From Lachnospiraceae bacterium (GTDB taxonomy: Bacteria > Bacillota > Clostridia > Lachnospirales > Lachnospiraceae): a stretch of DNA of 47,936 nt. This document shows, in pieces, positions 9,014 to 47,178 of this stretch. The position numbers and the translations under genes are program-made. The first letter of the stretch is position 1. Each line of letters starts with the position of its first letter. The DNA lies in contig JAEEKN010000380.1 of NCBI GenBank assembly GCA_016282435.1, forward strand, positions 1 through 47,936. The letters are read 5' to 3'. The notes below the pieces were generated by a model. It was not told the origin of the DNA. It worked only from the letters and a program-made list of their open reading frames with translations, and did not search any database.

Positions 9014-9025
9014 AAATAAACCTGT

Positions 9026-27280: not shown

Positions 27281-27308
27281 TTCAAATAAAAAGATGAGCG
27301 TAAATAAG

Positions 27309-27625: not shown

Positions 27626-27673
27626 ATTATATTCCTCTGAGACAAATATTTGAATACAATTGTAAAAAATAAA

Positions 27674-27702
27674 TTGACACTGACAAAATACTATAGTATA
27701 CT
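27674..27702 (+). promoter_or_regulatory. Promoter of the PPC-repeat gene
   Basis: TTGACA (27674-27679), 17-nt spacer, TATACT (27697-27702). Confidence 0.55.
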
Positions 27703-27777
27703 GATATTTGACCCGAATCTTATGTGATAAATTGAGACATGATTTAGGTAGTATAATGATAATGGAGGATATTTGTC

Positions 27778-28260: not shown

Positions 28261-29222
28261 CGGATAAAAAGCCTCTTTTAGGTATAATTAATAGCGATTC
28301 AGAGGTTGACTGGTATAAATATACTGTTAATAGCACAAATCCATTTAAAATAGTTTTAGATAACATGAGTGAAAGTGATTTGAGATGGCGCTTTAGTATA
28401 TATGATAATGATGGATCTACATTACTTTGGGATAAGAATACAGATTGGTCTGTAGCATCAACCGCCTCATGTAATTTGATGTATGAAAAAGGTCATGAGT
28501 TATATATAAAAATAAATAATTGTAGCTCGTCCGAGAATAAAATATATCAAATAAAAATTATCATTGATAATAGTACTGGATGGGCAAAGGAAGATAATGG
28601 ATCTTCTGAGAAGGCATATAAGATTGATAGTACAAGTGATATAAAGGAATTCCTTGGACCCAATAATGATGTTGATTGGTATGTGTATTCTGCTAAGAAA
28701 AATGAAAAGATTGCTTTTGAGTTTTCAAATACTGAATCAGCTGATGGGCGATGGAATTTACGCTTTTATGAGGGGAATGTTGATAAAGTAATTGACGAAA
28801 CTAACCTTGATTGGAATGAATTTTCTTATAAATATGAGATTAATGCCACAAGAGGAACCCGGTATTATATATGTGTAAGTGACTGTTCTAGTTCTTATGA
28901 TAAAGTATATAAGTTGAGTGTTAGGGATTCTGTAGAACATACTTCGAAAGATAATGTAGAATCAGGTTCAGATGATGGTCAGGGTATCACATCACCATAT
29001 TCCATTCTTGCAGGTACAAATGTTGTAGTTGGTAAAGCAGATGCCGGCGCAAAGGTTAGTGTTAAATATGGAAAGAAGACCTATACAGCAACGGCGAATT
29101 CAGAGGGCATTTATCGTGTAAAGACAGCAAAGCTTAAGAAGGGAAAGAGTGTAACCATCTGGCAGACTGTTAATAAGCAGGATTCTGAGAAAGTGACCGT
29201 TAAGGTTGTTAACAAGTATTAA
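28257..29222 (+). CDS. Continuation of the PPC-like repeat protein (-1 frame): modules 2 and 3 plus a C-terminal Ig-like domain; not an independent gene
   Basis: No SD precedes the TTG at 28257, and there is no signal peptide. This frame is open from 28233. Two further modules (SEVDWYKYTV..., NDVDWYVYSA...) are homologous to module 1. Confidence 0.7.
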   Translation: MTDKKPLLGIINSDSEVDWYKYTVNSTNPFKIVLDNMSESDLRWRFSIYDNDGSTLLWDKNTDWSVASTASCNLMYEKGHELYIKINNCSSSENKIYQIKIIIDNSTGWAKEDNGSSEKAYKIDSTSDIKEFLGPNNDVDWYVYSAKKNEKIAFEFSNTESADGRWNLRFYEGNVDKVIDETNLDWNEFSYKYEINATRGTRYYICVSDCSSSYDKVYKLSVRDSVEHTSKDNVESGSDDGQGITSPYSILAGTNVVVGKADAGAKVSVKYGKKTYTATANSEGIYRVKTAKLKKGKSVTIWQTVNKQDSEKVTVKVVNKY

Positions 29223-29279
29223 TTAAAGAAGGCGTCCTATATTCTAGGTTCCTAGTGGGGGACTTTTGGAAAAAGAATT

Positions 29280-29330
29280 GGACATACCATTTGTTTTGAT
29301 ATCGTGGCGAATGGTATGTCCATTTATTTT
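29280..29330 (+). terminator. Rho-independent terminator after the PPC-repeat gene
   Basis: 12-bp stem GGACATACCATT (29280-29291) / AATGGTATGTCC (29310-29321) followed by ATTTATTTT. Confidence 0.75.
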
Positions 29331-29344
29331 GGATTCCTAACGTG

Positions 29345-29379
29345 AATAGGAAAGAAAATAGGGGTCTTCCTATTTTTTT
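29345..29379 (+). terminator. Second hairpin with a T-run
   Basis: AATAGGAA (29345-29352) / TTCCTATT (29367-29374) followed by TTTTT. Confidence 0.5.
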
Positions 29380-29520
29380 CCTGTAAGATAATAAACTGCC
29401 AGTGCGGTTCTGTGTGACAGGTCTTCAGCTACCACTTTTATGATGTCAAGTTTTCTGCCGGTATAGTCTTAAGCATCAAATCCGTATGAGAGATTATGTA
29501 CAGGCTAAGAAGAATCATAC
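29370..29520 (-). pseudogene. Relic of the 3' end of a LuxR/NarL-type response-regulator gene (paralogue of 36342-37028)
   Basis: The minus strand translates to ...DYTGRKLDIIKVVAEDLSHRTALAVYYLTGKK*, versus DYTDRELDIIKAVAEGLS[...]KEDLSHRTALAVYYLTGKK* in the intact gene. The HTH core is missing. In-frame TAA and TAG codons lie just upstream. The 60 nt at 29460-29519 match 36792-36851 at 46/60 positions (hand alignment). Confidence 0.75.
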
Positions 29521-29522
29521 TA

Positions 29523-30128
29523 TTATTTAAGATACAGTGACTTCCAGAAGTTGATAATCTGCTCATAATCAGATACCATTTTGTCGATATCAAGTTTTGA
29601 GTTTTGCTGCATACGCCATAAATAGCCCTCGGATGCCAGGTACATATCCTGATACATCATCTTTAGGTCCAATCCATCCTTGAACTTTGATGCGTCCAAG
29701 GGGGGCAAACTCGAATTTGTTTCCATTTTTGTATAAGGAGCAACTACCTTTTGAACATCCGCAGCAACCTCCGGGTCCTTTTCATAGTAAGCTTTGATTG
29801 TAAAATTACCCATATCGGGATACCTTTTCATCATATTTGCTTTTGCCAGTAAGCCTTTATACATGATGTCAAATATGTCATTACCGCGGTATGCTCCGGA
29901 TTGCATCAGGGTCTGTTTTGTTATCTCTTCGGCTTTTTTGAGCAGGAAAATATATAGTTCCTTTTTGTTTTTAAAGTAAAAGAACAGAAGGGACTTGCTG
30001 ATGCCTGCTTCTATCGCAATTTCGTTTACAGGACTCTTCTTATACGAATTCCGGGCAAACACCTTAAAGCCGGCGTTTATTATCAGGTTTTGCTTTTCCT
30101 CGGGGAGTGCATAAAATTTTTCGTTCAT
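29523..30128 (-). CDS. TetR/AcrR-family transcriptional regulator
   Basis: ATG at 30128 lies 6 nt after GGAGG; the track start at 30185 overlaps the permease gene. HTH block VNEIAIEAGISKSLLFFYFKNKKELY. Confidence 0.85.
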   Translation of the reverse strand: MNEKFYALPEEKQNLIINAGFKVFARNSYKKSPVNEIAIEAGISKSLLFFYFKNKKELYIFLLKKAEEITKQTLMQSGAYRGNDIFDIMYKGLLAKANMMKRYPDMGNFTIKAYYEKDPEVAADVQKVVAPYTKMETNSSLPPLDASKFKDGLDLKMMYQDMYLASEGYLWRMQQNSKLDIDKMVSDYEQIINFWKSLYLK

Positions 30129-31896: not shown

Positions 31897-32009
31897 TGAG
31901 TTTGTGTCTTTTTTCACTACAAAAATAAAAATCCGGGGTTTATAATGAGTGTGTCGACGAACAAAAGCAGCAAATCAAAAAATTGAAAATAGAAAGTGAG
32001 AAGGAACTG

Positions 32010-32762
32010 ATGAGTACTATTTTAAGAACAAAGGATTTAACAAAAAAATACGGAAGCAAGGTAGTTGTTGACAACCTGAATCTCGAAATCGAGGAAGGTG
32101 AAGTGTTTGGTCTCTTAGGACCTAACGGTGCCGGAAAGAGCACCACAATGAACATGATCTGCGATATCATAAAGCCTACTCTGGGAACCGTGGAGTTTAT
32201 GGGAAAAGATTTTAAGAAAAACAGAAAAGAGCTTCATTCCAAGCTCGGATATATACCCCAGGATCTGGCTATTCACGGAAGACTCAAGGCGTGGGAAAAT
32301 GTAGAACTGTTTACATCACTGTACGGGATAAAGGGACAGGAACTAAAGAAAAGAATAGATGAATCACTCGAATACGTAGGTCTTACCGAGAAAAGAAATG
32401 ATTATGCCAGGACATTTTCAGGCGGTATGAAGAGGAGACTGAACATAGCATGTGCCATAGGACATCATCCAAACCTCCTGATATTTGACGAACCCACAGT
32501 CGGCATCGATGCCCAATCCAGGAACTTCATAATGGAGAAGATCAAGGAATCGAACCGAAACGGAGCTACAGTGATCTATACCAGCCATTACATGGAGGAA
32601 GTAGAAGCAATATGCACCAGGATAGCCATCATGGATAACGGCAAGATCATAGCAACAGGAACCGTAGAGGAACTAAAGAAAATGGTAGTTGAAGACACTT
32701 CCAAGATATCTCTTGAAGAAGTGTTCCTGACACTCACCGGAAAGACACTGAGGGATTACTAA
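32010..32762 (+). CDS. ABC transporter ATP-binding protein
   Basis: Walker A GPNGAGKSTT, signature FSGGMKRRL, Walker B LLIFDEPTVGID. ATG at 32010 is preferred over the TTG at 31983. Confidence 0.9.
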   Translation: MSTILRTKDLTKKYGSKVVVDNLNLEIEEGEVFGLLGPNGAGKSTTMNMICDIIKPTLGTVEFMGKDFKKNRKELHSKLGYIPQDLAIHGRLKAWENVELFTSLYGIKGQELKKRIDESLEYVGLTEKRNDYARTFSGGMKRRLNIACAIGHHPNLLIFDEPTVGIDAQSRNFIMEKIKESNRNGATVIYTSHYMEEVEAICTRIAIMDNGKIIATGTVEELKKMVVEDTSKISLEEVFLTLTGKTLRDY

Positions 32763-32763
32763 G

Positions 32764-33891
32764 ATGATTAGATACTTGATTAAAAACAATTTCAAAATAA
32801 TGTTCAGAAGTGCCACGAACATTCTTATCCTGACATTAGCTCCCATAGTGGTAAGTGCAGTGCTTATAAGTGCTTTTTCTGCCATAATGGAGAAGTATCA
32901 GGAAACTGGCAACTTTAAGGTTGGATACAGTTATAACAGCGAGGAGACTCCGGCGGCAGTTATTGACGGGATAAGGGCTATTGCCGAAGAGCAGGGAATC
33001 TCATTTGTAGAATATAAAAATACGGAACCTAAAGATGCATTAGAAGATGATAAGCTTGCCGGTTTTGTGGATTTTGGAAAAGAAAGCTATACAGTATACA
33101 AAACGGATGAAGCTGAGGCGGAAAACCAACTTTTGGAATATATTCTTCATGCTTATTACGAGAACATGTCCATGGCAGTTTCGGGACAGATGGGACATGA
33201 GTCACAGCAGACTGCGGCTACAAAAGAAAGTGCCGGAGAAACGGGTGCGGAAAAAATACAGGTCCTGACCGGAGATTTCATGCCAGCGGTAGATTCTACA
33301 GATTATTACGGTATTATATATCTTGTATATTTTGGCTGGTGCTGTATAGTTTGCGGAGCGGGACTCTTTAACGCAGAGAAAAAATACGGCATAGAAAAAA
33401 GAGAGATGATGTCGGGAATATCGGAGCTTAAGGCCTATCTTTCCAAATTTGTTCCTTTAGCAGCTGTGACATGTGCAGGACTTTCAATCTACGGGGTCGC
33501 ATCGGTCGTAATATTTGGAGTTAACTGGGGAAATGCTTTTCTGTCAATCCTTATCATCATATTGGGGATAATGGCCGCTACAGCGTTGGGACTTATGGTG
33601 TATTCTCTGTGTGACAACATGGTAGTGACAGTAATAGTAGTGTTTATGCTGGTATGGTACTGGGGTTTTTCGGGAGGAAGCTTTGAAACATATATGTTCT
33701 CACAAATGCCTCAAATTTTGAAATCCCTCTCACCTATCTACTACGAAAACAGAGCTCTGATAGAGCTTTCATGTATGGGCAGTACAGATTATGTTATAAA
33801 AAGCATTGCTGTTTCAGGGGGTATGACGGTATTATTCTCAGGAATAGCGGTTTTGGTAAGCACTTTAAGAAGGAGAGGTGGAAAATCATGA
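32764..33891 (+). CDS. ABC-2 type permease 1
   Basis: N-terminal TM helix, a large external loop, and a C-terminal cluster of TM helices. Starts 1 nt after the ATPase stop. Confidence 0.8.
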   Translation: MIRYLIKNNFKIMFRSATNILILTLAPIVVSAVLISAFSAIMEKYQETGNFKVGYSYNSEETPAAVIDGIRAIAEEQGISFVEYKNTEPKDALEDDKLAGFVDFGKESYTVYKTDEAEAENQLLEYILHAYYENMSMAVSGQMGHESQQTAATKESAGETGAEKIQVLTGDFMPAVDSTDYYGIIYLVYFGWCCIVCGAGLFNAEKKYGIEKREMMSGISELKAYLSKFVPLAAVTCAGLSIYGVASVVIFGVNWGNAFLSILIIILGIMAATALGLMVYSLCDNMVVTVIVVFMLVWYWGFSGGSFETYMFSQMPQILKSLSPIYYENRALIELSCMGSTDYVIKSIAVSGGMTVLFSGIAVLVSTLRRRGGKS

Positions 33892-35162
33892 GCGCTTTAG
33901 TAAAATCAACGTTAAAAATCTTATTCAGGATGAAGGGCTTCTGGTTTTTCCTTCTGATAACTCCTTTTTTTACAACGTTGATCCTGTCAACAAGAAACGA
34001 TAATCTGTCATATTTAAGTAATACTGAGGAAACTATTACAGAACTTGATGATATAGATCATGTAGTAGCTTATTTTAGCAGTAATGGAAAATGCGTTATA
34101 AAGGTTTATGACGGATCGAAAGACGGATTGTCGGAATATATGCTGAATAAGATATCTGAAAGCGGCCTTTTTAAAGTCTGCAGAGTAATCCTTTCAGATA
34201 CCGAAAAAAACGACTTTGATGGATTTATCAGGGAAAGACTTGGAGAAGACGGATATAATGACAGAATGGGTGCAGCTATGTTCATACGGCCCGGATTTGC
34301 AGACAATGTCGGCAAATCAGGTAGTACGGTGCTTGATATATATAAGCTTTCTGATGACAGCAGAATCGATATTTTAGAGAGTGAGGTAAAGACCATACTT
34401 TCCAAAATAGAAAAAGCAGCAGAGGCATGTCCGGGAAATGAGCAGGCAGCAGTGGACGCTTTGTTAAGCATTGATAATCTCATTCCTGAAAAGAAGACAG
34501 TGTCCGTATCCTTGGAGAATAAAAACACCCTCGACCTCGAACAGACAAATCAGAAAACCAGAATGGGATACGCGCTTGCAATCCTCACACTTGGATATGT
34601 CTTCGGCGGAATATTTATAGCACATATATGTATCAATGAGCAGAAAGACTGTGTGTTTACCAGGTTCAAGCTGGCAAATATGGGCATGCTGGAATATTTC
34701 TTCTCAAAAGTTGTAACTTCGGTGATAGTTACATTCATGCTTACGGGAGTAATGGGAATATGTACCCTGTTCTTGGATGTCGAAGCGATGGGAATGAGTG
34801 TTCCGAGTTTTCTGCTGGTTATAACACTTATGGGCCTGATATTCAGTACCCTCTCTCTTATGTTGGGAGTTCTTATCGGAGATGTAATGAGTTCAAATGT
34901 AGCAGCATTTACATTATGGAGTATGTCGGCACTGCTTAGCGGTCTGTATTTCCCGATTGATCACACAAGTGACGTAATAAAGACCTTATCTTATGTTATG
35001 CCGCATAAATGGTTTATGGATGGCACCGAATCAATAATAATAGGTGACAAATCGGCCCATGTTATGTTATTATGTATTACAGTAGCATATTTAGTCATAA
35101 TAGCCAGTGTAGGAAGTATGTGCCTTAAGGTAAAAAGGGTTGACTCATGGGGGAGCAATTAA
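33888..35162 (+). CDS. ABC-2 type permease 2
   Basis: ATG at 33888 overlaps the preceding stop (ATGA) and follows AGGAGAGGTGG. The track start at 33771 lies inside the upstream gene. Same topology as permease 1. Confidence 0.8.
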   Translation: MSALVKSTLKILFRMKGFWFFLLITPFFTTLILSTRNDNLSYLSNTEETITELDDIDHVVAYFSSNGKCVIKVYDGSKDGLSEYMLNKISESGLFKVCRVILSDTEKNDFDGFIRERLGEDGYNDRMGAAMFIRPGFADNVGKSGSTVLDIYKLSDDSRIDILESEVKTILSKIEKAAEACPGNEQAAVDALLSIDNLIPEKKTVSVSLENKNTLDLEQTNQKTRMGYALAILTLGYVFGGIFIAHICINEQKDCVFTRFKLANMGMLEYFFSKVVTSVIVTFMLTGVMGICTLFLDVEAMGMSVPSFLLVITLMGLIFSTLSLMLGVLIGDVMSSNVAAFTLWSMSALLSGLYFPIDHTSDVIKTLSYVMPHKWFMDGTESIIIGDKSAHVMLLCITVAYLVIIASVGSMCLKVKRVDSWGSN

Positions 35163-36319
35163 AAAGAAATTACTTTATGATAGTCCGGATTATTCTGATG
35201 CTGAGTTTTGGGATAAGCGGGTATCTGAAAACAGATGTTAGGACAACAGGAGTATCGGTCACGGTACTCCTGCTTGCCGCGTTTTATATCGGGGCAATGG
35301 CACTTTTGGCAACAAATGAAAAATCCCCTGAAAATGATAATGCCAGTACCATAAGATTTAAAACAATCATCGGAATCGCTTCACTTCTGGCAGCAGGGAT
35401 CATATTCTGTATTATGATGGCGGTAGCCGGAAAAAGTTTTATACTTTTCGGATACTATCTTATTTATGAAGCACTTATGTTTTTTAAGGTGCCGGCTTTC
35501 TGCTTTTTTATACCGCTTATTCTGGCTTTTATTCCGGGACCGATAGGATTTCTTGAGCAGTTCCTGATACTGGCCATGATGACGGGCTGTTATATCCAAC
35601 AGGAATTTGTGGTGTCATCATACAGGAGGCAGATCATAGAGGAAACCGTTCTCGAACAGGAACTAAAGAAGGATATAGAAATAAGGGAACAAACGAATAA
35701 AGAAAAAATGAAAAAGAGTTTGTTGGCAGCCAGTAACCAGATACTTGAGGAAAGATCGAACCTGGCTCAGGCACTTCACGATAAGCTGGGTCATAATATA
35801 AATGGCTCCATATATCAGCTTGAAGCTATAAAAGTACTGATGGATAAAGATCCCGAAAAGTCTAAGCAGATGACGCAGGCTGTCATAGACCAGCTCAGGT
35901 CAGGAATGGATGAGATAAGGGCCATTCTTCGTAAGGAACGTCCGGAGAGAAAGGATCTTGCGCTTCTCCAGATATATAAGCTCTGTGAAGACTGTAACAG
36001 CAAAGGGGTTGAAACTAACCTTGAAACTGAGGGGGATATCTCTCTGATTCCCGATAATATCTGGGAGATTATTCTGGATAATGCCTTTGAAGCTGTTTCG
36101 AATTCCATGAAGTATGCGAGATGTAAAAATATCCGGATAAAAATTTTCGTGATGAACAAAATCGTGAAATGCACTATAATAGATGACGGAAAAGGCTGTC
36201 TGGAAGTAAAGGACGGTATGGGAATATCCGGAATGAGAAGACGTGTCCGCAGCGTGAACGGAACACTTGATTTTGAAACCATGACCGGGTTTACGGTAAA
36301 GATGCTGCTGCCGTTGTGA
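35147..36319 (+). CDS. Sensor histidine kinase, HisKA_3 (NarL/LiaS/YvfT-type)
   Basis: N-terminal polytopic membrane domain. H-box LAQALHDKLGHNINGS, N-box LDNAFEAVSNSMKYA, G-boxes DDGKG and GMGISGM. Confidence 0.88.
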   Translation: MGEQLKRNYFMIVRIILMLSFGISGYLKTDVRTTGVSVTVLLLAAFYIGAMALLATNEKSPENDNASTIRFKTIIGIASLLAAGIIFCIMMAVAGKSFILFGYYLIYEALMFFKVPAFCFFIPLILAFIPGPIGFLEQFLILAMMTGCYIQQEFVVSSYRRQIIEETVLEQELKKDIEIREQTNKEKMKKSLLAASNQILEERSNLAQALHDKLGHNINGSIYQLEAIKVLMDKDPEKSKQMTQAVIDQLRSGMDEIRAILRKERPERKDLALLQIYKLCEDCNSKGVETNLETEGDISLIPDNIWEIILDNAFEAVSNSMKYARCKNIRIKIFVMNKIVKCTIIDDGKGCLEVKDGMGISGMRRRVRSVNGTLDFETMTGFTVKMLLPL

Positions 36320-36341
36320 TTTATTTTTAGAGGAGAAGAGT

Positions 36342-37028
36342 ATGGATAAAATCAAAGTAATAATAGCTGATGACAGTGATTTTGTACGTGACGGAATGAA
36401 GATCATCCTCGATGTGGATGATGATTTTGAGGTCATCGGCACTGCGTCGAACGGTCGTGAGGCGATAGAACTGGCAGAAAAACAGAAGCCTGATGTATTT
36501 CTGATGGATATCCAGATGCCGGAAATGGACGGTATAGATGCAACAAAATATATAGTAGAACACGATCTGGGCAAAGTACTGATACTTACCACCTTTGATG
36601 ATGACGACCTGGTAAAGAGAGCACTGAAAAACGGGGCAAAGGGGTATCTTATAAAAAACCATACCCCCGAACACTTAAAACAAATGATAAAATCCGTATA
36701 TAACGGAACAGGGGTAATGGATGAAAACATACTTAATGCGCTGACAAAACTCACTGTTTCCGGTGAAAAGGCAACTGACGCAAGCGATCAGGCGGATTCT
36801 TCGAAGCTGGTACGTAATCTCGCAGACGGATTCGACGCATCAGACTATACCGACAGGGAACTAGATATCATAAAAGCCGTAGCAGAAGGACTGTCAAACA
36901 AGCAGATAGCGGAAAAACTGTACATATCCGAGGGAACTGTTAAGAATTACATAACCAACATTCTCTCTAAAGAAGACTTGTCACACAGGACTGCACTGGC
37001 AGTTTATTATCTCACGGGGAAAAAATAA
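36342..37028 (+). CDS. LuxR/NarL-family response regulator
   Basis: Receiver motifs (VIIADDSDFV, DVFLMDIQMPEMDG, ILTTF, KGYLIK) plus the LuxR HTH (LSNKQIAEKLYISEGTVKNYITNIL), joined by an unusually long linker. Confidence 0.9.
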   Translation: MDKIKVIIADDSDFVRDGMKIILDVDDDFEVIGTASNGREAIELAEKQKPDVFLMDIQMPEMDGIDATKYIVEHDLGKVLILTTFDDDDLVKRALKNGAKGYLIKNHTPEHLKQMIKSVYNGTGVMDENILNALTKLTVSGEKATDASDQADSSKLVRNLADGFDASDYTDRELDIIKAVAEGLSNKQIAEKLYISEGTVKNYITNILSKEDLSHRTALAVYYLTGKK

Positions 37029-39644: not shown

Positions 39645-41072
39645 ATGTTCAGGTGTGATTATAAGAAACTTTGCCTAGCTTTTAACTGTTTTCATGATGT
39701 TCAAGTGGATGACATGCCTGAGTATGGGGACTATGTTCTTATCGAATTAAAGGACGGACGCCATACAGCAGGATGCTGGTATCCGAAAGATGATGAGGAG
39801 ACTGTATCAGGAAGCTTCAGTCGGGACAGTTTTGACTCCGTTGACGTTGGGGAAGTATCGAAATGGCAGCCACTTAACGGATATGACCTTACAGGATCGC
39901 TGGAGAAGGAGAATATCAATCGAATAATTCTGGGATCCGATGAAGATGACCCTTATATTGTCGAGATCAGGGATTTTAAGTCATTTAAGGATGGAGATTT
40001 CCCCAAAAACAAACAATTCTGCCTCCTGATCTTAATTGACGGAACTTTGGCAGCAGGAAGGTGGAATAAGCTGGGAGAAGATGACGGACAGTTTATTTAT
40101 GCATCAGCTCTGGCATCCCACAGTATGAATAAGGTTTGGGCATGGACTCCATTAAGTTCCGATGAAATATTTGAGGAGGAAGAAGAAAAAGAAAGAGAGC
40201 GCTTAGCCGAGGAGGAACTAAACAAACATCCTACGGCCGATCCCGAGAAATTCAAATACGGAACGGATATAAATGCTTATTATGAAAAGGCTTTGGAAAA
40301 ACTGCGTGAGGAATATCCCTGGGCAACTCTTGCACAGATGAAAAAGAAAACGCCATATGTGATCGTGCCTCGCCACGGACAGTATATTTTCGGAAAAGAC
40401 TGTGGGACGTATATGGGACAGAATGTAGTCAGGGAATGGATTGACGGCAGTACTGCCGATGAATTTGTTGATTTCCTGCGTGAGTACACCCGGGAAAAGG
40501 TGAAGAATTCCGATCCTGTAGTGAAATTCAAATACGGAACTGAAATTAAAGTATATTTTGAAAAAGCATACGAAAAAGTCAAAAAGGATTATCGATGGTT
40601 TAATAAGGAAATGGCAGATAATTACTGCCAATATGCGATAATAGAGGTAGACGGCGAACCGGAATTCGCCAGGAAATTTAATAACGATAAAGAATTCCAC
40701 GTGTACGATTGTGAAAGTGCTGACGGATTATTGAAAAATATGGAGTATGAATTTCAGGAAGCGGCACTTAAGGAAAATCCTGTTGTGGCAGAGTATGCGG
40801 TACCGTTTGGAAGGGTTGACGCGAACGGATGGTGTCTGGAAAAATATATCGTATATAAGCTTAAGTCAGGTGATTACAAGGTATTTGTACAGGCCGGAGA
40901 CAGGACTGCAGGAGGCAGCAGAGAGTTCTTTATTACACCTGACTGCTTTGAAGCAAAAACATATGATGAGTTTTTGGACCGTTATCTGGAAATCGTTCCG
41001 GGTAGTTCATTTGGACTCAATAAACAGGATCTTGCTCCCGATATGGAACTGAAAAAATTCTTTGGATATTAA
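39645..41072 (+). CDS. Hypothetical cytoplasmic protein built from two internally duplicated module pairs
   Basis: Good RBS (GGAGCGGAG). Duplicated blocks: YVLIELKDGRHTAGCWYP...KWQPL versus CLLILIDGTLAAGRWNK...WAWTPL, and KFKYGTDINAYYEKALEKLREEYPW versus KFKYGTEIKVYFEKAYEKVKKDYRW. No known motif recognised. Confidence 0.7.
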   Translation: MFRCDYKKLCLAFNCFHDVQVDDMPEYGDYVLIELKDGRHTAGCWYPKDDEETVSGSFSRDSFDSVDVGEVSKWQPLNGYDLTGSLEKENINRIILGSDEDDPYIVEIRDFKSFKDGDFPKNKQFCLLILIDGTLAAGRWNKLGEDDGQFIYASALASHSMNKVWAWTPLSSDEIFEEEEEKERERLAEEELNKHPTADPEKFKYGTDINAYYEKALEKLREEYPWATLAQMKKKTPYVIVPRHGQYIFGKDCGTYMGQNVVREWIDGSTADEFVDFLREYTREKVKNSDPVVKFKYGTEIKVYFEKAYEKVKKDYRWFNKEMADNYCQYAIIEVDGEPEFARKFNNDKEFHVYDCESADGLLKNMEYEFQEAALKENPVVAEYAVPFGRVDANGWCLEKYIVYKLKSGDYKVFVQAGDRTAGGSREFFITPDCFEAKTYDEFLDRYLEIVPGSSFGLNKQDLAPDMELKKFFGY

Positions 41073-41130: not shown

Positions 41131-44100
41131 ATGATATTAGGAAAAAAAGCATGTTTATCACGGATTGGAAAATGTTTGATCGCGACGTTGATTGCGGTTG
41201 TGATGATTACGGGTGTGTTCACGGCAACAGATTTCAGCCCGGTTCGGGCTGCTGTTGATAAGTCTGCAGCTCAGAATGAAGTTAAAAGCAAGGTCACTAA
41301 AAAAGAGGCGAAGAACTTTGTTAAAAAAGTAGCAAAGGTCAACAAGATAAAAAACATTCTAAAAAAACACAGCTCATTCAGCATATCTTATGTTGATTAC
41401 GACCTTTGGATTGACAAAGAAAAAGCGTTTTATAACAATCTTGTATCAAAACGCAGTATTTATGCCGATGAAGACTTTATCTGCATACTTGAAGGTGATG
41501 ATCCGTCAACATTTTATTATGTGGTGGATACCGATGGACGCGGAGATAAGTATGCCGGTACTAATGCCTATAATTTAGTTGATAATATTTTAACTGCGGA
41601 CAATCTTCTTGAAGAGAAACCTGCTTCACTGGTTAATGACGGTAAAACGATTACATATACCGGTAAACTGTCAAAGGAGAATATAGAAGTTTTTAAGAAA
41701 CTGTTAGGAATAACAGAAGATGTAAAAGAAGTGTATAGCCGGTTGGTTGTAAAGGCTGATACCTATGAAGTCTTGGAATACGCTACATATTCAATAGGGA
41801 AAGAAGAACATCCGGAATTTTGTGTTCAGTATGCTTATGATACTGAAGAACCTGTAGGGTGTTGCCTGTTGCGAAGGATGGCTCATCGTCAGGAAAGGGA
41901 CACCGTTAAATTTTCAGTGATCCGTGATAAGGGTACGGAAAAAGAGTATATTAAACAGATGACAATTCCGCAGAATTGCGGAGTAATGGTATATGCAAAA
42001 GGAACCGATGGACAATATATTGATGACGGATTTACAAAACTGTTTGAAAAATGGGATAGAAAGAGTGACATAACACTTTATTGCAGAACAGTGGAAAATA
42101 GTGATGGTAATGCTGATTCGGAAACGGATGAAATAAGTTCAAAACTTGACGAGGAATATGAGCGCCTCTTACCCGACCTTGGACCGCGCCTTGAGGAATG
42201 GAATGCGGAACTCGCAAAATGTTCCGAAGAAGAGAAGCGGATCATGAAGTACTATTTTATCACGACCTCGATGAATGAACTGTGCAGTATAGATTTTTCA
42301 CTTCTTCATAGTTATGCATCACATGCAGCACAGCTTCGTGAAAATATGCCCTGGACAAAGGCACTTGATGAGGATACATTCCTGTGTTATGTAGCTTCTT
42401 ACAAGGTGTACGTTGAACCGGTAGTTGACTGCAGACCCTTTTTCTATGAACAGCTTTCCGAACTGGTGAAGGGAAAGTCTCTCACTGAAGCGGCACTTCT
42501 GGTGAATTTCTGGTGTGGCTGTCAGGCGACTTATGAAGATAGCGACGAGAGAGCTGCATCTCCTCTCGGAATGTATAATGGTGGAGCCGGGAGATGCGGT
42601 GAAGAAGCAACCTTTGTTGTAAATGTACTACGCAGTGTAGGTATTCCTGCACGCGAATGTGACGTAGATTGGAGTATAGTCTTAGGCGGGCATGCATTCG
42701 TTCAGATACTTGTAGATGGAGAATGGCATTATATGGGTGCCTGTGAGCCTGACCCTGTGCTGGATTCCGGATGGTTTACGGGAAGACTTGGAAGTCTTAT
42801 TTGTACGAGTTCATATTCCTTTAGCGAAATCGGAGTGGGTCAGTCTTATATAGACGATTACGGGGTTTATAAAATTAATGATATTGCTGATTTTACAGAT
42901 ACAAAGAAAATAACAATCACAGTACTTGACAAGGACGGAAAGCCTGCTCCTAATGTTAGTACAGATCTTATGGTGGTTCAACCCGGATCGTTTCTTAGTA
43001 CTCTGGTAACTTTGACTACCGATAAGAATGGAGAGGCAAAATACTCTATAGGCAAAGGAAGTATATATGCTGTGGCATATATGGAAGACGAATGGCGTGG
43101 GACTTGGATTACTCAGGATCAAAAGAAAGCTACCATATCTTTTGCTGAAGAACCCCAATATGATGTATGGGAGAGTTTCGAGATAAGATACAACGAAGCG
43201 GATGCAAAGAATGTACAAACATACACTGATGAGGACTGGAGAGCTCTTTTCGGTACAAAAACGATAGATGAAATCAGAGCCGAAAACCATTCCGGTGATT
43301 TTGATCCGGAACGTGCCGCAGCATATCCTGACTGCGAAGAGAGCTTGCGCAGTGCCGGCAGAAATTTTGATGAACTTATCACTTTCCTTGAAAAAGACGA
43401 TGATCCTCTCAGGAGTGTTCTTGTGAAGGGACTTTCCGAAAAATACTGTTGTGAAGTCAAATCTGATGTTCTGGAAGATATATTACAGGGGGCTAAAAAG
43501 GTTCGTGGAGAACTTAACGATGACATTTTCGTAAACGGTATTTTATACCCGGTATATGAATGGTCGTATTTTATGCCGCAGAGACAGGATGTTTTGAACC
43601 TGTTTACAAAGAAACAACTGAAAAAATTCAGAAAAGATCCTTCGACGTTAAAGAAGTGGTTTGAAGCCAATATTTCCGATAAATGTATAAGGCAGTATCA
43701 AAATGGTATTCCTTCTCTTATCGGTACATTGAAAATGGGGTATTGTCCTGAAGGATGTCGAACCGTGATCTTGATGGAACTGGCGAGAGCTATAGGCATA
43801 CCTGTATATCAGGATGAAAATACATTGCAATGGTTTTATTACAGAGAAAACGAGTGGATAGTTGCAGATTGGACTTTTGATCCGGAAAAAGAAAGCACGG
43901 GTAAGGTACAATATCTGCTTCCTGACAGTGAAAAATATCTGGGAGAAATCTGGACGCTTGTAGGTGATTACAGAGACTACGGATTGGAAACTTGGATATT
44001 TTGGCCGGTAGAAGAAGGGGATCAGGAAGAGATAGGTGACTTACCTGTAGGAGATTATGTGATGCTTTATGCAGATATGTCCGAAGAAAAGTCAGGAACA

Positions 44101-44160
44101 CTTTATATGAGATATGTGAAGGTAGAGGAAGGAAAGACGACGGTTTTAAAACTTCCCTGA
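41131..44160 (+). CDS. Large signal-anchored/secreted transglutaminase-like (papain-fold Cys-His-Asp) protein
   Basis: N-terminal hydrophobic segment CLIATLIAVVMITGVFTA. The transglutaminase core GRCGEEATFVVNVLRSVGIPARECDVDWSIVLGGHAFVQILVDGEWHYMGACEPD holds the Cys, His and Asp. Confidence 0.8.
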   Translation: MILGKKACLSRIGKCLIATLIAVVMITGVFTATDFSPVRAAVDKSAAQNEVKSKVTKKEAKNFVKKVAKVNKIKNILKKHSSFSISYVDYDLWIDKEKAFYNNLVSKRSIYADEDFICILEGDDPSTFYYVVDTDGRGDKYAGTNAYNLVDNILTADNLLEEKPASLVNDGKTITYTGKLSKENIEVFKKLLGITEDVKEVYSRLVVKADTYEVLEYATYSIGKEEHPEFCVQYAYDTEEPVGCCLLRRMAHRQERDTVKFSVIRDKGTEKEYIKQMTIPQNCGVMVYAKGTDGQYIDDGFTKLFEKWDRKSDITLYCRTVENSDGNADSETDEISSKLDEEYERLLPDLGPRLEEWNAELAKCSEEEKRIMKYYFITTSMNELCSIDFSLLHSYASHAAQLRENMPWTKALDEDTFLCYVASYKVYVEPVVDCRPFFYEQLSELVKGKSLTEAALLVNFWCGCQATYEDSDERAASPLGMYNGGAGRCGEEATFVVNVLRSVGIPARECDVDWSIVLGGHAFVQILVDGEWHYMGACEPDPVLDSGWFTGRLGSLICTSSYSFSEIGVGQSYIDDYGVYKINDIADFTDTKKITITVLDKDGKPAPNVSTDLMVVQPGSFLSTLVTLTTDKNGEAKYSIGKGSIYAVAYMEDEWRGTWITQDQKKATISFAEEPQYDVWESFEIRYNEADAKNVQTYTDEDWRALFGTKTIDEIRAENHSGDFDPERAAAYPDCEESLRSAGRNFDELITFLEKDDDPLRSVLVKGLSEKYCCEVKSDVLEDILQGAKKVRGELNDDIFVNGILYPVYEWSYFMPQRQDVLNLFTKKQLKKFRKDPSTLKKWFEANISDKCIRQYQNGIPSLIGTLKMGYCPEGCRTVILMELARAIGIPVYQDENTLQWFYYRENEWIVADWTFDPEKESTGKVQYLLPDSEKYLGEIWTLVGDYRDYGLETWIFWPVEEGDQEEIGDLPVGDYVMLYADMSEEKSGTLYMRYVKVEEGKTTVLKLP

Positions 44161-44202: not shown

Positions 44203-44445
44203 ATGGAAAAAGGTTATGAAGTAATGAAACAGCTTGTAGAAAGTGGTGATTTTGAAGCGTTATCTTCGAAAGAGGATTTAGAGAAGGTACTTTTAGAACA
44301 TGGATGTTCAAAAGAAGAGATTGAGGGAATTTTATCTGAATTTGGCGGTTTCCCTCTCGATGATGAAGATCTTGCTGCTATCACCGGGGGATTTTCAACG
44401 AAGGTTCCTGTTATAGCTGATATAACACAGCCATTTCATATTTAA
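44203..44445 (+). CDS. Putative RiPP precursor peptide 1 (Nif11-like leader, double-glycine motif, 17-aa core)
   Basis: ATG at 44203 lies 7 nt after GGAGA; the ATG at 44197 is only 1 nt from the SD. 80 aa: 63-aa acidic helical leader ending PLDDEDLAAITGG, then FSTKVPVIADITQPFHI. Confidence 0.7.
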   Translation: MEKGYEVMKQLVESGDFEALSSKEDLEKVLLEHGCSKEEIEGILSEFGGFPLDDEDLAAITGGFSTKVPVIADITQPFHI

Positions 44446-44513: not shown

Positions 44514-44753
44514 ATGGATAAGGGTCATGAAGTAATAAAACAGCTTGTGGAAAGCGGTGAGTTTGAGGCACTGATATCAAAGGAGGATTTGGAAAAAACG
44601 CTTCTGGAGCATGGATGCTCAAAAGAAGAGATTGAAAGTGTTTTATCCGAATTTGAAGGATTCCCTTTGGACGATGATGATATCGAGGCAATCACCGGAG
44701 GCGGTAGTATGCCAAAAAGCGTTCATGTTCGGGTTTGCGACATAACTCGCTAA
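44514..44753 (+). CDS. Putative RiPP precursor peptide 2 (Nif11-like leader, double-glycine motif, 16-aa core)
   Basis: ATG at 44514 lies 6 nt after GGGAGG. 79 aa: the leader is 51/63 identical to peptide 1 and ends PLDDDDIEAITGG, then GSMPKSVHVRVCDITR. Confidence 0.7.
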   Translation: MDKGHEVIKQLVESGEFEALISKEDLEKTLLEHGCSKEEIESVLSEFEGFPLDDDDIEAITGGGSMPKSVHVRVCDITR

Positions 44754-44862: not shown

Positions 44863-45927
44863 GTGACAGAACATTTAGGAAATATCACAATAAGTATATG
44901 TATGATAGTCCGTAATGAAGAGGCTGTTCTGGAGCGTTGTCTCAATTCGGTCAGGGGCGTATATGATCAGCTGGTGATAGTTGACACAGGCTCTGAAGAT
45001 GAGACCGTATCAATTGCACGTCGTTTTACGGATGAGGTTTTCTGTGAACCGTGGGAGAATGATTTCGGTAAAGCCAGAAACAGCTCGTTTTCACATGCAC
45101 GTTCAGATTATATCATTTATCTTGATGCCGATGATGTTTTGCCGGAGGAAGAAAAGGAAAAGCTTCTGAAACTTAAAACCGAGCTTTCCACCTTGCCGGA
45201 GGACGAACGTCCACGTACGATACTGATGAGTTACGATGTACCGGAGGCAGGAGGTATTTCTTTTCGTCAGCGTATGGTAGCCAGGCATGATGACAGACCA
45301 TACTGGCATGGAGCGATACATGAGTGCATGGATTATGAAAAGCCAGTAATGACTACAGATATTATGTTCCTTCACCGAAAGCTGGTACAGCCCCCGAAGG
45401 ATCGTAACTGCAACATCATCCGTGCTATACCCAGAGAAGAACTGAAGAATAACTTCTGGCTGAGTGCCCAGTGTAATCTTGATATGCTATTGGCCGGACA
45501 TGAAGAGGAGGCTGAGGAATATTTCAATATGTGCGAGGACGAGGCAGGAAGTAATATATCCGTGGTTGCAGGGAGTGGCGTAGGTACTAATCCGGATACT
45601 ACCTGTGACACCGGGGATGATAGGTATACTGGATATCCGTACATGGATATATGTCTGCAGTTGGCTTCAACTCTTAATCATCATAAGCTTTGGGAAGGGG
45701 CGTTTCGTTGGGTAAAACTGTCTGAAAGAATATGGTCGGACCACAGTGGAGCAGTTTACGATAATAGTGTGCTCCTCATGCTATACCAACAGGGAGTAAA
45801 GGCATTAACAGGCTTAGGCAGATTAGAAGAAGCTGTCTTATATAATGAAAAAGTGCTTGAACTGGCACCGGATAACCGGGCAGCTTTGATGAATCGTGCT
45901 TATTTTGCGAAGAAGCTTAAATCGTGA
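44863..45927 (+). CDS. SunS-like GT2 + TPR peptide glycosyltransferase, paralogue 1
   Basis: GTG lies 6 nt after GGGAGGAG. GT-A blocks: ISICMIVRNEEAVLERCLNSV, VIVDTGSEDET, WENDFGKARN, YLDADDVL, WHGAIHE. The helical C-terminal half has TPR-like repeats (EEAVLYNEKVLELAPDNRAALMNRAYF). Confidence 0.75.
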   Translation: MTEHLGNITISICMIVRNEEAVLERCLNSVRGVYDQLVIVDTGSEDETVSIARRFTDEVFCEPWENDFGKARNSSFSHARSDYIIYLDADDVLPEEEKEKLLKLKTELSTLPEDERPRTILMSYDVPEAGGISFRQRMVARHDDRPYWHGAIHECMDYEKPVMTTDIMFLHRKLVQPPKDRNCNIIRAIPREELKNNFWLSAQCNLDMLLAGHEEEAEEYFNMCEDEAGSNISVVAGSGVGTNPDTTCDTGDDRYTGYPYMDICLQLASTLNHHKLWEGAFRWVKLSERIWSDHSGAVYDNSVLLMLYQQGVKALTGLGRLEEAVLYNEKVLELAPDNRAALMNRAYFAKKLKS

Positions 45928-45941
45928 TCAAGGAGAAATGT

Positions 45942-47048
45942 ATGCAGGAGAATAAAGCCGGGATAACCGTAAGTGTCTGCATGATAGTACGGGATGAGTC
46001 GCCTGTCCTGGCAAGATGTCTTGACGGGGTATCGGTATTTGCGGACGAAATTGTTATCGTGGATACGGGATCGATAGATGATACACGTGAGATAGCCTTG
46101 CGCTATACAGACCGGGTATATGATTTCCCGTGGATAGATGATTTTGCCGCAGCCCGAAATGTTTCTTTCTCATATGCGTCAATGGATTATGTGATGTGGC
46201 TGGATGCGGATGATGTGATATCTTATGCTGATGCCATGCTGATAAAGGAACTGAAGCATACGCTTCCCGGTGAAACGGATATGGTGTTCTTTCTGTATGG
46301 AGGGGAACGCGATCAGGAAAATGTTTATAATAATTCTTTTGTTTTCCGTGATCGTTGGTTCCGCAGAAGCCTGAATCCTGTCTGGCACGGAAGACTCCAT
46401 GAATATGTAACTATGTCGAAAGAAGCTGTAAAATACTATGATGACCGGATATGTATCCGTCACTGCAAAGTCAGGGTAAACGATCCTGAACGTAACATGC
46501 GTATTCACAAGCTTTGTATGGCTGAACAGACAGAACCCGATGCACGCAACATGGGTTTTTTGTGCAATGAGTATTTTTCAAAAGGAGAATTGGAGAACGC
46601 TGTTTCTATGTTTGACGAACTAACCGGACAGGAACATTTCCCTGCGTTTGATGTTAAAAATGCGCTATCATCATATATTTTTAGCATGAAAAGCTTAAAA
46701 AGAAATGACGAGCTGATCTGCCGGCTTTTGTCATTACAGGAAAATGGTGTTGTAAATGAAATGCTGCTGACTGAATTAGGGGTAGCTTTTTTAGCCCGGA
46801 AAGAATATGATGAAGCTGAAAAATATCTGAAAGATGCGCTTAAACTACCCGTCGATTACCGGGATATGTCGGTACATTTTGAAGCTTATCATGAATTTAT
46901 ACCTTGTCAGAAATTATCGAAACTTTATGCTGTTAAAGGAGACATGAAGACAGCTTACGAGTATTTTAAAAGAGCTGAAAAAATTTACCCGGAAAATAAG
47001 ACGATAAAACTGAACCGTGCATATTTCAATCGGGAAAGTATTACATAG
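45942..47048 (+). CDS. SunS-like GT2 + TPR peptide glycosyltransferase, paralogue 2
   Basis: ATG at 45942 lies 5 nt after AGGAGA. GT-A blocks: VSVCMIVRDESPVLARCLDGV, VIVDTGSIDDT, WIDDFAAARN, WLDADDVI, WHGRLHE. TPR-like C-terminal half (YDEAEKYLKDALKL, MKTAYEYFKRAEKIYPENKTIKLNRAYF). Confidence 0.75.
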   Translation: MQENKAGITVSVCMIVRDESPVLARCLDGVSVFADEIVIVDTGSIDDTREIALRYTDRVYDFPWIDDFAAARNVSFSYASMDYVMWLDADDVISYADAMLIKELKHTLPGETDMVFFLYGGERDQENVYNNSFVFRDRWFRRSLNPVWHGRLHEYVTMSKEAVKYYDDRICIRHCKVRVNDPERNMRIHKLCMAEQTEPDARNMGFLCNEYFSKGELENAVSMFDELTGQEHFPAFDVKNALSSYIFSMKSLKRNDELICRLLSLQENGVVNEMLLTELGVAFLARKEYDEAEKYLKDALKLPVDYRDMSVHFEAYHEFIPCQKLSKLYAVKGDMKTAYEYFKRAEKIYPENKTIKLNRAYFNRESIT

Positions 47049-47130
47049 AAGAATGTATAAAGTATACAATAAAGACTGTGCAGAATGCATATTGCAAAAT
47101 ATGTGAAGTTTTGTTTATAATATTACAAGC

Positions 47131-47178
47131 AAAGGCGTTAATGGAAACTTTTGGTTTCAGTTAGCGCCTTTTTGTTTT
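47131..47178 (+). terminator. Strong rho-independent terminator ending the GH3-to-GT unit
   Basis: AAAGGCGTTAA (47131-47141) / TTAGCGCCTTT (47161-47171) with an inner GAAAC/GTTTC stem, followed by TTGTTTT. Confidence 0.8.

Follow-up and report, generated by a model that had tools for sequence, protein, structure and literature searches.

A conserved two-glycosyltransferase cassette in Lachnospiraceae appears to encode glycosylated peptides of a new family, akin to yet distinct from the glycocin antibiotics

Gene content of the cassette and its precursor peptides

The window analysed here, a stretch of 47,936 nucleotides from a Lachnospiraceae bacterium, carries on its forward strand a gene cassette that begins with the gene of a secreted transglutaminase-like (papain-fold) protein of 1009 amino acids (positions 41131 to 44160), assigned from its Pfam matches and its conserved position. 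This gene is followed by those of two small precursor peptides, pep1 (80 amino acids; 44203 to 44445) and pep2 (79 amino acids; 44514 to 44753), and by two glycosyltransferase genes, GT1 (354 amino acids; 44863 to 45927) and GT2 (368 amino acids; 45942 to 47048), which are assigned from Pfam, structural (GT1) and syntenic evidence. The peptide genes adjoin GT1 on its 5' side, 110–420 nucleotides away. GT1 starts with GTG and has GGGAGGAG upstream of the start, while the most likely start of GT2 is the ATG at 45942, which is preceded at 5 nucleotides by AAGGAG; this leaves a gap of 14 nucleotides after the GT1 stop, which the alternative GTG start of GT2 at 45924 would overlap. For pep1, the ATG that gives 80 amino acids is better spaced than the start at 44197, which would give 82. 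The tandem glycosyltransferase genes and the precursor pair directly upstream of them had been recognised in the initial annotation and are confirmed as ORFs, but the transglutaminase-like gene, which completes the conserved set of four, had been missed.

Downstream of GT2, an intrinsic terminator composed of a hairpin and a U-run (47127 to 47177, forward strand; −22.6 kcal/mol, z = −5.4, with none of 200 shuffled sequences as stable) is the 3' boundary of both the operon and the cassette. In an alignment with strain L030, which is 99% identical, homology breaks off at the GT2 stop codon. Neighbourhoods that combine ATP-grasp and transglutaminase genes are known, and a circularly permuted ATP-grasp gene located downstream was weighed as a cassette member for this reason; it was rejected because the terminator lies in between and because the gene is missing from this position in L030 and in all other lineages. 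Upstream, the gene of a 475-amino acid protein and a GH3 gene were likewise discarded, being confined to close strains. As stated initially, no PCAT (C39-ABC) or thiol-disulfide oxidoreductase occurs among the scanned window ORFs of at least 90 amino acids, seven of which have no family match, and no exporter, C39 peptidase, immunity gene or sugar-nucleotide gene was found in the cassette or the window.

In pep1, residues 1–63 form a leader that ends in LDDEDLAAITGG and is followed by the core FSTKVPVIADITQPFHI, whereas the 63-residue leader of pep2 ends in LDDDDIEAITGG and its core is GSMPKSVHVRVCDITR. Both cores have 16–17 residues; that of pep1 contains no Cys, as noted before, and that of pep2 contains one. 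The two precursors are 74% identical and their differences cluster after the GG. The family is small, 1.84 billion proteins containing 59 cluster representatives; both in these and in a set of 15 homologues, a conserved leader precedes a hypervariable core. Among near-identical strains, the flanking genes share 97–99% nucleotide identity but the pep1 gene just 89–90%, and seven of the ten amino acid differences in pep1 fall at core positions 3–9. A conserved leader, a hypervariable core and tandem paralogues with a common leader but a differing core together form a RiPP signature. A literature search retrieved no description of this leader or cassette family.

The residues that precede the core, L-D-D-E-D-L-A-A-I-T-G-G, fit every position of the double-glycine pattern (L at −12, D/E at −8, L at −7, I/V at −4, GG) and vary little or not at all among family members. 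Judged by these residues, the pep1 and pep2 leaders are predicted to be of the double-glycine (class II bacteriocin/ComC-type) kind, with model scores that stay below threshold: pep1 residues 54–65 reach 14.9 bits against TIGR01847, a double-glycine model with a cutoff of 15.7, and the ComC model PF03047 matches the precursors at E 0.028, just under its threshold. At default thresholds no Pfam or NCBIfam model matches the precursors, and at E up to 10 the matches are confined to sub-threshold double-glycine ones. A ubiquitin-like Gly-Gly tag was also contemplated and rejected, because the leader has the residues expected of a bacteriocin double-glycine leader and because, in the distant relative L015, a PCAT gene adjoins the peptide. 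With respect to architecture, the precursors resemble Nif11-type (prochlorosin-like) ones, which also have a long (>60 amino acids) helical leader ending in Gly-Gly, several precursors, hypervariable cores and a transporter that can be unlinked. However, the leaders described here have no Pfam match to Nif11 (PF07862), with one of 15 members hitting TIGR03798 at E 0.098, and the linked tailoring enzymes are glycosyltransferases instead of lanthionine synthetases.

No Ser, Thr or Cys is found at a fixed position in all of the orthologous cores. The Thr of the D-I-T shared by both cores and the single Cys of pep2, which had been put forward as acceptor candidates, are not conserved, in contrast to an Asp at position 10 or 13; Ser/Thr at positions 2–4 is mostly conserved. 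In relatives, Asn replaces the core Asp, often within N-x-S/T.

Two glycosyltransferases of the GT2 family

GT1 and GT2 are paralogues that align end to end (29% identity, E 1e-36); within the family, GT2 is better conserved than GT1. Their N-terminal halves match Glycos_transf_2 (PF00535; E 1e-21 for GT1 and 2e-16 for GT2), and the C-terminal half of GT2 exceeds the Pfam cutoff for TPR_2, TPR_1 and TPR_8, while the TPR matches of GT1 are weak. The AlphaFold model of GT1 (pLDDT 89.4) shows a GT-A domain and, C-terminal to it, a repeat domain made up of helices alone. Pfam and the structural model thus agree with the two-part architecture described initially, and the motifs then listed are all present in both proteins: ISICMIVRNE in GT1 and VSVCMIVRDE in GT2, RCLNSV and RCLDGV, WENDFGKARN and WIDDFAAARN, WHGAIHE and WHGRLHE, together with VIVDTGS and LDADDV. 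The DxD motif (LDADD) and the other residues of the catalytic core are invariant in an alignment of 32 sequences. By PF00535 and the DxD motif, both proteins are GT2-family (GT-A, inverting) enzymes. GT1 lacks a signal peptide and is predicted to be cytoplasmic.

The nearest solved or characterised relatives of these enzymes glycosylate peptides or proteins: GmaR is the closest in sequence, SunS and ThuS are the closest in full-length fold. In searches of PDB sequences GmaR is the better match (81 bits for both proteins), with E values of 7e-22 for GT1 and 9e-22 for GT2 compared with 3e-18 and 2e-9, respectively, for SunS. A Foldseek search with the GT1 model returns SunS and ThuS as best full-length matches (E ~1e-14, TM 0.57–0.59), followed by matches to the GT-A domain only (E ~1e-7, TM 0.35). 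Among family models that of SunS (TIGR04195, NCBIfam) ranks top, although GT1 and GT2 score 68.9 and 44.3 bits on this equivalog, far below its cutoff of 350 bits. In the tree, both enzymes group with GT-TPR proteins of Clostridia, and SunS and GmaR fall outside this clade in 100 of 100 bootstraps. GT1 and GT2 are by these sequence criteria not SunS orthologues, and the earlier label of SunS-type enzymes consequently holds for the fold but not for orthology.

Known glycocins are ~37–43-residue helix-loop-helix peptides with two or three nested disulfides, and the characterised ones named in the same source are Cys-rich and disulfide-stapled, each with a SunS-type glycosyltransferase (PMC12457901). 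The loci of sublancin (SunA/SunS), thurandacin (ThuS), glycocin F (GccA) and thermoglycocin (ThgS) share with the cassette a precursor with a double-glycine-type leader beside a cytoplasmic GT2-family enzyme. In SunS and ThuS this enzyme is likewise built from a GT-A and a helical/TPR domain, and its catalytic motifs align with those of GT1 and GT2; the SunS blocks that the initial annotation cited (IIVYNES, CLNSV, WKNDFSYARN, FIDADN, FHGKVHEE) all occur in the translation of SPbeta yolJ and align with the window motifs. The full-length structural matches, the top rank of the SunS model and the leader type would all suit a true glycocin locus like those of sublancin or glycocin F, in which SunS-type S-/O-glycosyltransferases modify Cys, Ser or Thr and the PCAT and oxidoreductases are encoded elsewhere. 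This reading is nevertheless highly improbable. Besides the low equivalog scores and the exclusion of SunS from the clade, glycocin cores need at least four Cys and nested disulfides, while the cores described here have none or one Cys and no disulfide pairs; the leader has 63 residues compared with ~20 in SunA; glycocin loci contain one glycosyltransferase and not two paralogous ones; the sunT, bdbA and bdbB genes that lie beside sunS in the sublancin locus have no counterpart in the window; and a conserved secreted transglutaminase-like gene is not part of the glycocin gene set. The locus is thus not a canonical glycocin locus, lacking a SunS equivalog, a Cys-rich core and the oxidoreductase and PCAT genes, although the precursor does lie next to a glycosyltransferase gene, and the earlier expectation of glycocin-like peptides does not hold for core length, disulfides or leader.

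Conservation of the cassette and of the peptide linkage

The order transglutaminase-like gene, one to five precursor genes, GT1 and GT2 is found in at least seven diverged lineages of Lachnospiraceae/Clostridia with different flanking genes (L001/L009, L010, L011, L027, L029, L031 and the P0010 contig, the latter locus being read from gene calls), in which GT1 identities are 52–65%. GT1 orthologues (52–99% identity) always adjoin peptide genes and GT2, and in all loci of this group (group A) the transglutaminase-like gene lies directly 5' of the peptides. GT2 identity is 65–69% in the other group-A lineages and 39–43% in a second set of loci (group B), in which distant GT2-type relatives again adjoin peptides of the same leader family; the GT2-type clade that covers both groups has a bootstrap of 98/100. 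The synteny was recovered with a peptide-seeded and with a GT1-seeded search, and look-ups seeded with the glycosyltransferases, which carry no bias towards peptides, also bring up the small ORFs. A functional link between glycosyltransferases and peptides, as suggested initially, is supported by this conservation, and none of the orthologous loci examined in the seven or more lineages carries the glycosyltransferase pair without small peptide genes. A peptide-profile scan of metagenome contigs found one locus and that of viral contigs found none, with no sign of phage carriage.

The peptide linkage bears on the question of whether the enzymes modify an altogether different target. GmaR is the Listeria flagellin O-GlcNAc transferase and MogR anti-repressor, which glycosylates its substrate on Ser/Thr. 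It shares the GT2+TPR layout and has the closest GT-A domain by sequence, so that GT1 and GT2 might by analogy act on flagellin, or on a spore or wall component, with the small ORFs adjacent by chance. Solitary GT-TPR genes of the sister clade beside unrelated genes (e.g., gerA) and teichoic acid-type enzymes encoded elsewhere in the window agree with such a role. However, peptide genes are linked in every orthologous locus examined and reappear, with the same leader family, beside the group-B relatives; no flagellar genes or mogR context were found in the window; and GmaR, which falls outside the GT1/GT2 clade, acts on flagellin, binds MogR and has 637 amino acids with a C-terminal extension of ~270 residues, before which GT1 and GT2 stop. 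An unrelated target is therefore very unlikely. Close glycosyltransferase homologues of 29–35% identity do occur on their own, in neighbourhoods that lack a peptide gene (L020–22, L026). The tree does not resolve the peptide-linked glycosyltransferases as one clade (bootstrap 18/100), and a single origin of the peptide linkage is therefore not claimed.

The comparison also bears on how the two enzymes share their work. Both glycosyltransferases are kept in loci with a single precursor (L001/L009, L011, L027, L029, L031), of which L011 comes from the cultured Butyrivibrio sp. AC2005, and in remoter relatives a single fused ORF encodes a GT1-like as well as a GT2-like domain (L013, L014, L016, L018). 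Both enzymes therefore probably act on the same peptide, and the earlier suggestion that each enzyme serves one precursor is disfavoured by these loci.

In remoter relatives, members of the leader family are located beside GT2-TPR or GT8-TPR enzymes, a radical SAM enzyme and a sugar epimerase/dehydratase. A canonical C39 PCAT adjoins a leader-family peptide only in L015, and none is linked in the window's own subgroup. In Murimonas (L017), the peptide is present with no glycosyltransferase nearby.

Proposed maturation of the peptides and its significance

The transglutaminase-like protein contains a Transglut_core domain (PF01841; residues 449–534) and an Ig-like Big_1 domain, and varies from 713 to 1009 amino acids among family members. 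Its N-terminus is hydrophobic and signal-like, and a signal peptide or lipobox is also found in orthologues. The Cys (in GRCGEE), the His and the acidic residue expected of the triad are invariant in 36 homologues. In Foldseek, the AlphaFold model (pLDDT 90.7) gives domain-level matches only, among them the putative Cys protease 3isr and TG2/FXIII, which counts against a firm functional assignment within the model presented below. A PDB sequence search with the protein gave no match, and the literature consulted on S. pyogenes TglA, to which it shows a match, was uninformative. We regard the protein as a candidate for a maturation enzyme that acts outside the cytoplasm as a protease or a transamidase, and any specific activity assigned to it from its modelled fold is a guess. 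A precedent for a maturation step comes from lasso-peptide biosynthesis, in which transglutaminase-fold cysteine proteases, the B proteins (MEROPS C96), cut off the leaders and are likewise tied genetically to a RiPP precursor (PMC10885120). However, the protein described here differs from the B proteins in its large size, its signal peptide, its Ig-like domains and its PF01841 domain in place of the lasso-type PF13471. No Asn-synthetase-like cyclase (PF00733) or RRE was found in the cassette or the orthologous loci, and these are thus not lasso clusters; a lasso-like macrolactam joining the N-terminus to Asp10 or Asp13 was rejected for want of such a cyclase.

The most probable reading, to which we assign a probability of about 0.6, is that GT1 and GT2 modify the peptides of a four-gene RiPP-type cassette that defines a new glycocin-like family of glycosylated RiPPs, the chemistry and bioactivity of which we infer. 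In the proposed pathway, precursors made of a conserved helical and acidic 63-residue leader with a terminal double-glycine motif and a hypervariable core of 16–17 residues would be glycosylated in the cytoplasm by GT1 and GT2, both enzymes drawing on common nucleotide sugars and acting on the same core peptide. The two enzymes would probably cooperate, as a complex or in sequence, with their helical/TPR halves probably docking on the conserved leader, and the result could be either two glycosylated sites or one disaccharide. Candidate determinants of modification are the Ser/Thr at core positions 2–4 and an Asp-x-Thr/Ser element at core position 10 or 13. The modified peptide would then be exported by a transporter encoded outside the cassette and processed outside the cell by the transglutaminase-like enzyme, leader removal at the Gly-Gly being the likeliest step. 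The final product would be a short, linear and disulfide-free glycopeptide that may function as a bacteriocin or as a signal. Several observations count against this pathway, namely that no exporter, C39 peptidase, immunity or sugar-nucleotide gene lies in the cassette or the window, that glycosyltransferase homologues occur alone and the Murimonas peptide without them, and that the cores have no invariant Ser, Thr or Cys. Furthermore, with the transglutaminase-like protein predicted to lie outside the cytoplasm, the leader-bearing glycopeptide must somehow cross the membrane.

Cleavage of the leader separates this pathway from a different view of the small proteins, according to which they are not RiPP precursors but stable helical proteins with a glycosylated variable C-terminal tail. 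They would then function as intracellular or surface glyco-adaptors or as glycan primers, and the task of the transglutaminase-like enzyme would be to cross-link them to the cell envelope or anchor them there, not to cut off a leader. The first 45 residues are indeed strongly conserved and weakly match small helical domains, the transglutaminase-like fold is also used for transamidation, and the up to 6–7 glycosyltransferases encoded in group-B loci would suit oligosaccharide assembly on a primer; the lack of a linked PCAT in the window's subgroup also agrees with proteins of this kind. But the residues ahead of the tail match the canonical double-glycine motif position by position, a true C39 PCAT adjoins the peptide in L015, secreted RiPPs typically have hypervariable cores and precursors in several tandem copies, and no Gln or Lys on which transglutaminase chemistry could take place is conserved among the cores. 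We thus consider stable glycosylated proteins unlikely and favour glycosylated RiPP precursors that are cleaved.

Glycosylated ribosomal peptides are a small class, and the cassette suggests that rumen and gut Lachnospiraceae follow a different design, which combines short, linear and Cys-poor cores, a long and previously unmodelled leader, two cooperating glycosyltransferases and a conserved secreted papain-fold enzyme. If confirmed, this design would widen the substrate scope of peptide glycosyltransferases, which is relevant to peptide glyco-engineering, and would provide a new leader/enzyme recognition pair. Sequon-rich relatives, such as the L019 and L014 clusters, could in that case also reveal cytoplasmic N-glycosylation of RiPPs. 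In a broader and rather doubtful proposal, the wider leader family would constitute a new RiPP class whose GT2-TPR enzymes, joined in other branches by GT8-TPR and radical SAM enzymes, read an Asx-x-Ser/Thr element ~10 residues past the double-glycine and add an N-linked sugar on Asn, or form an unprecedented linkage. The branch found in the window would have Asp in place of Asn and a secreted transglutaminase-fold enzyme in place of the PCAT. In L018, one of the remoter relatives, true Nif11 precursors adjoin the related cluster.

A conserved cassette and its borders

Searches seeded with the precursor peptides and, independently, with GT1 orthologues converge on one unit, in which a gene for a transglutaminase-like protein (713-1009 aa) is followed by one to five peptide genes and then by two paralogous GT2-TPR glycosyltransferase genes, here named GT1 and GT2. 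At least seven lineages carry the unit, with GT1 identities of 52-65% to the window's enzyme (L001/L009, L010, L011, which is Butyrivibrio sp. AC2005, L027, L029, L031 and the P0010 contig), as do the near-identical strains L005 and L030. Because its flanking genes differ in every lineage and homology between the window and strain L030 (99% identical) ends at the GT2 stop codon, the cassette extends from the transglutaminase-like gene (41131) to a strong terminator hairpin located after GT2 (47127-47177, + strand; -22.6 kcal/mol, z = -5.4). We estimate at about 0.6 the probability that it represents a new family of glycocin-like, probably doubly glycosylated, linear RiPPs in Lachnospiraceae, the chemistry of which is putative. 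The contig of the window is part of a MAG from this family of bacteria. A search of the open-access literature for this gene combination, the leader motif GFPLDD and glycocins in Butyrivibrio returned no description.

The upstream GH3 gene and 475-aa gene and the downstream circularly permuted ATP-grasp gene fall outside the cassette, since these flanks differ between lineages. The 475-aa acidic protein is encoded at 39645-41072, after the GH3 gene and before the cassette, and occurs only in near-identical strains; it matches neither Pfam nor NCBIfam families and contains the internal repeat KFKYGT[DE]I..Y[YF]EKA.EK....Y.W. The ATP-grasp gene (PF14403/PF04174; 47256-47936) lies directly after the strain-specific breakpoint and is interrupted by the window end; at its position L030 carries an 84-aa ORF and an AAA-ATPase_like/PDDEXK_9 gene.

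Two glycosyltransferases of SunS-like architecture

GT1 (44863-45927, + strand; 354 aa) has a GTG start with GGGAGGAG upstream, while GT2 (368 aa, + strand) most plausibly starts at ATG 45942, with AAGGAG 5 nt upstream, and ends at 47048. The two ORFs, separated by 14 nt from stop to start, exist as described in the initial annotation, and every motif listed there was found in them. The SunS blocks that it cited are likewise present in the translation of SPbeta yolJ, where they align with the GT1/GT2 motifs. In both proteins, Pfam places a Glycos_transf_2 domain at the N-terminal side (E 1e-21 for GT1, 2e-16 for GT2) and TPR repeats at the C-terminal side; the repeats of GT2 pass the cutoff, and those of GT1 are weak. 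The two proteins are 29% identical over an end-to-end alignment (E 1e-36). No signal peptide is present in either enzyme. Both are predicted to be active because the residues invariant in a 32-sequence alignment, including VDTGS, ARN, DADD and the HE histidine, are kept.

The proposal that these enzymes are of the SunS type holds for their architecture and fold, but not for their family. By sequence, the closest solved relative of both is GmaR, the flagellin O-GlcNAc transferase of Listeria (E ~1e-22), followed by SunS (3e-18 for GT1; 2e-9 for GT2) and then ThuS. In the AlphaFold model of GT1 (pLDDT 89.4), a GT-A domain precedes an all-helical repeat domain, and Foldseek against the PDB ranks SunS and ThuS highest, with matches that span the whole protein (E ~1e-14, TM 0.57-0.59). 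As the next matches, WrtF, TarP and SpsA, cover the GT-A domain only (E ~1e-7, TM ~0.35), the term SunS-type architecture is justified. However, GT1 reaches 69 bits and GT2 44 bits on the NCBIfam equivalog model for SunS, whose cutoff is 350. A neighbour-joining tree built from GT-A domains with 100 bootstrap replicates places them with other Clostridia GT-TPR proteins and leaves SunS and GmaR outside this group in every replicate (100/100). The GT1 orthologues are recovered as a clade (100/100), and GT2-type enzymes as a separate one (98/100) that covers both the loci with the transglutaminase-like gene (group A, to which the window belongs) and remoter loci with the same leader family (group B). 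Stand-alone GT-TPR genes (350-380 aa), in whose neighbourhoods no peptide gene is found, make up a third clade (97/100), and a single clade of all peptide-linked enzymes has a support of 18/100. GT1 and GT2 are thus peptide-linked GT2-TPR enzymes with SunS-like architecture, and not SunS-family glycocin synthases.

The known glycocins are rich in Cys and have two or three nested disulfides; each is made by one SunS-type enzyme and exported by a PCAT, usually with the help of dedicated oxidoreductases (PMC12457901; sublancin locus). The window has the fold of the enzymes and the logic of the double-glycine leader in common with them, but departs from them in its cores and SunS equivalog score, and has neither an oxidoreductase nor a PCAT among the ORFs scanned. 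In addition, it has a second glycosyltransferase, a leader of 63 residues and a papain-fold enzyme that is secreted.

Precursor peptides and candidate acceptor sites

Directly upstream of the glycosyltransferase pair lie the precursor genes pep1 (44203-44445; 80 aa) and pep2 (44514-44753; 79 aa), both on the + strand. Homologues of these peptides are rare (13 clusters among 5.8 billion proteins; 59 representatives among 1.84 billion). All have in common an N-terminal leader of ~63 residues, in which a helical segment precedes F-x-G-F-P-L-D-D-(D/E)-D-L-x-x-(I/V)-x-G-G, followed by a hypervariable core of ~4-70 residues. The final twelve leader residues match the classical double-glycine pattern at -12, -8, -7, -4, -2 and -1; this end scores 14.9 bits on TIGR01847, just below the 15.7 threshold, its ComC match is weak, and the leaders have no significant match to Nif11. 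In strains that are 97-99% identical to the window in the nucleotides of the surrounding genes, the counterparts of pep1 are only 89-90% identical, and 7 of the 10 amino-acid changes affect core positions 3-9. Tandem copies with a common leader and differing cores also occur: the window has two and L010 has three, and the P0010 contig carries up to five small ORFs. Such a conserved leader with fast-diverging cores is the evolutionary signature of RiPP/bacteriocin precursors.

The D-I-T Thr and the pep2 Cys, initially regarded as the obvious acceptor candidates, are not conserved across the cores of the window's group. According to the core list, about 18 of the 21 distinct cores of this group have Ser/Thr at positions 2-4, and all except two have Asp at position 10 or 13, in most cases with I/V-T/S or P-x after it. 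In group B, Asn occupies position 10 or 11 in 7/8 GT-linked cores, and the window's subgroup has Asp where wider-family cores have the sequon position. The 59 wider-family cores (P0208-P0263; L012, L014, L019) contain 35 N-x-S/T sequons versus 15.8 ± 3.3 in within-core shuffles (35 reached in 0/5000), and 22 cores have at least one, versus an expectation of 11.4 ± 2.4; the same cores show no enrichment of control motifs. Some cores, e.g., P0231 and P0252, have 3-6 sequons, and one core of the GT-rich locus L018 is devoid of Ser, Thr and Cys: LGVAPLYRWNVKNGR. Given the Asp/Asn positions, the sequon enrichment and this L018 core, it is possible that an Asx-x-Ser/Thr element is what the enzymes recognise, and even that some relatives make N-linked sugars.

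Probable joint action, possible leader processing and remote loci

Group B (L012-L016, L018, L019) carries the same leader family beside a larger enzyme set. GT1-like and GT2-like enzymes are fused into one 694-1043 aa ORF (GT-A, helical, GT-A, TPR) in L013 (6779-9910), L014 (4051-6135), L016 (2673-4784) and L018 (7707-9998), and the group also has GT8-TPR glycosyltransferases, a short GT2-family enzyme (~270 aa) and a radical SAM enzyme (~410 aa). Such a 'Rosetta stone' fusion suggests that the window enzymes work together. That one enzyme serves each precursor, as had been considered, is unlikely because of these fusions and because several lineages have one precursor only, yet keep both GT1 and GT2. 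Most probably, GT1 and GT2 share one peptide substrate, which they would modify one after the other or at two sites, possibly as a heterodimer.

In every lineage the transglutaminase-like protein carries a signal peptide or lipobox, and its Cys-His-acid triad is invariant. The model of this protein is of high confidence (pLDDT 90.7) and resembles known structures at domain level only. Since, in addition, leaders are removed by transglutaminase-fold cysteine proteases in lasso-peptide pathways (PMC10885120) and no linked PCAT occurs in the loci of its group, the favoured role for this protein, and the weakest part of the model, would be leader processing outside the cytoplasm. The window's protein has ~300 extra N-terminal residues after the signal sequence (41131-42100) that are absent in the 712-770-aa orthologues from other lineages. 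In L010, a lineage of the transglutaminase group, two ABC exporters (ABC_membrane + ABC_tran) are encoded upstream (2-3590); the complete one has an N-terminal domain of ~180 residues without the C39 catalytic Cys and is possibly a peptidase-less exporter for the leader-bearing peptide.

Within group B, a sugar epimerase/dehydratase is present only in L015, as is a canonical C39 PCAT, which has its catalytic Cys, and in one Murimonas genome (L017) the peptide is present with no glycosyltransferase nearby. Three tandem small ORFs adjoin the GT/radical SAM cluster of L018 (15818-17088), a MAG binned as Treponema; the one scanned (16161-16493) is a true Nif11-domain precursor (PF07862, E 3e-14), with which the other two cluster by BLASTP.

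Elsewhere in the window, what looks like a peptide-sensing or resistance-type module (31983-37028), kept in L030 and not in other lineages, is located 4 kb upstream of the cassette. Its genes encode an ABC ATPase, two ABC-2 permeases, of which one is weakly SagH-like, a HisKA_3 kinase and a NarL/LiaR-type regulator. A stretch of lower GC (26000-30000; 0.36 vs 0.40-0.45 elsewhere) with a DUF4143/AAA_14 ATPase and two ORFs without family may be a small island. The 971-aa ORF at 582-3497 has no family match, and it is followed on the - strand by an envelope or secondary-metabolism block (3663-11398) that encodes an AMP-binding/nitroreductase fusion (693 aa), an MBOAT acyltransferase and a GT2-family domain fused to CDP-glycerol glycerophosphotransferase (790 aa).
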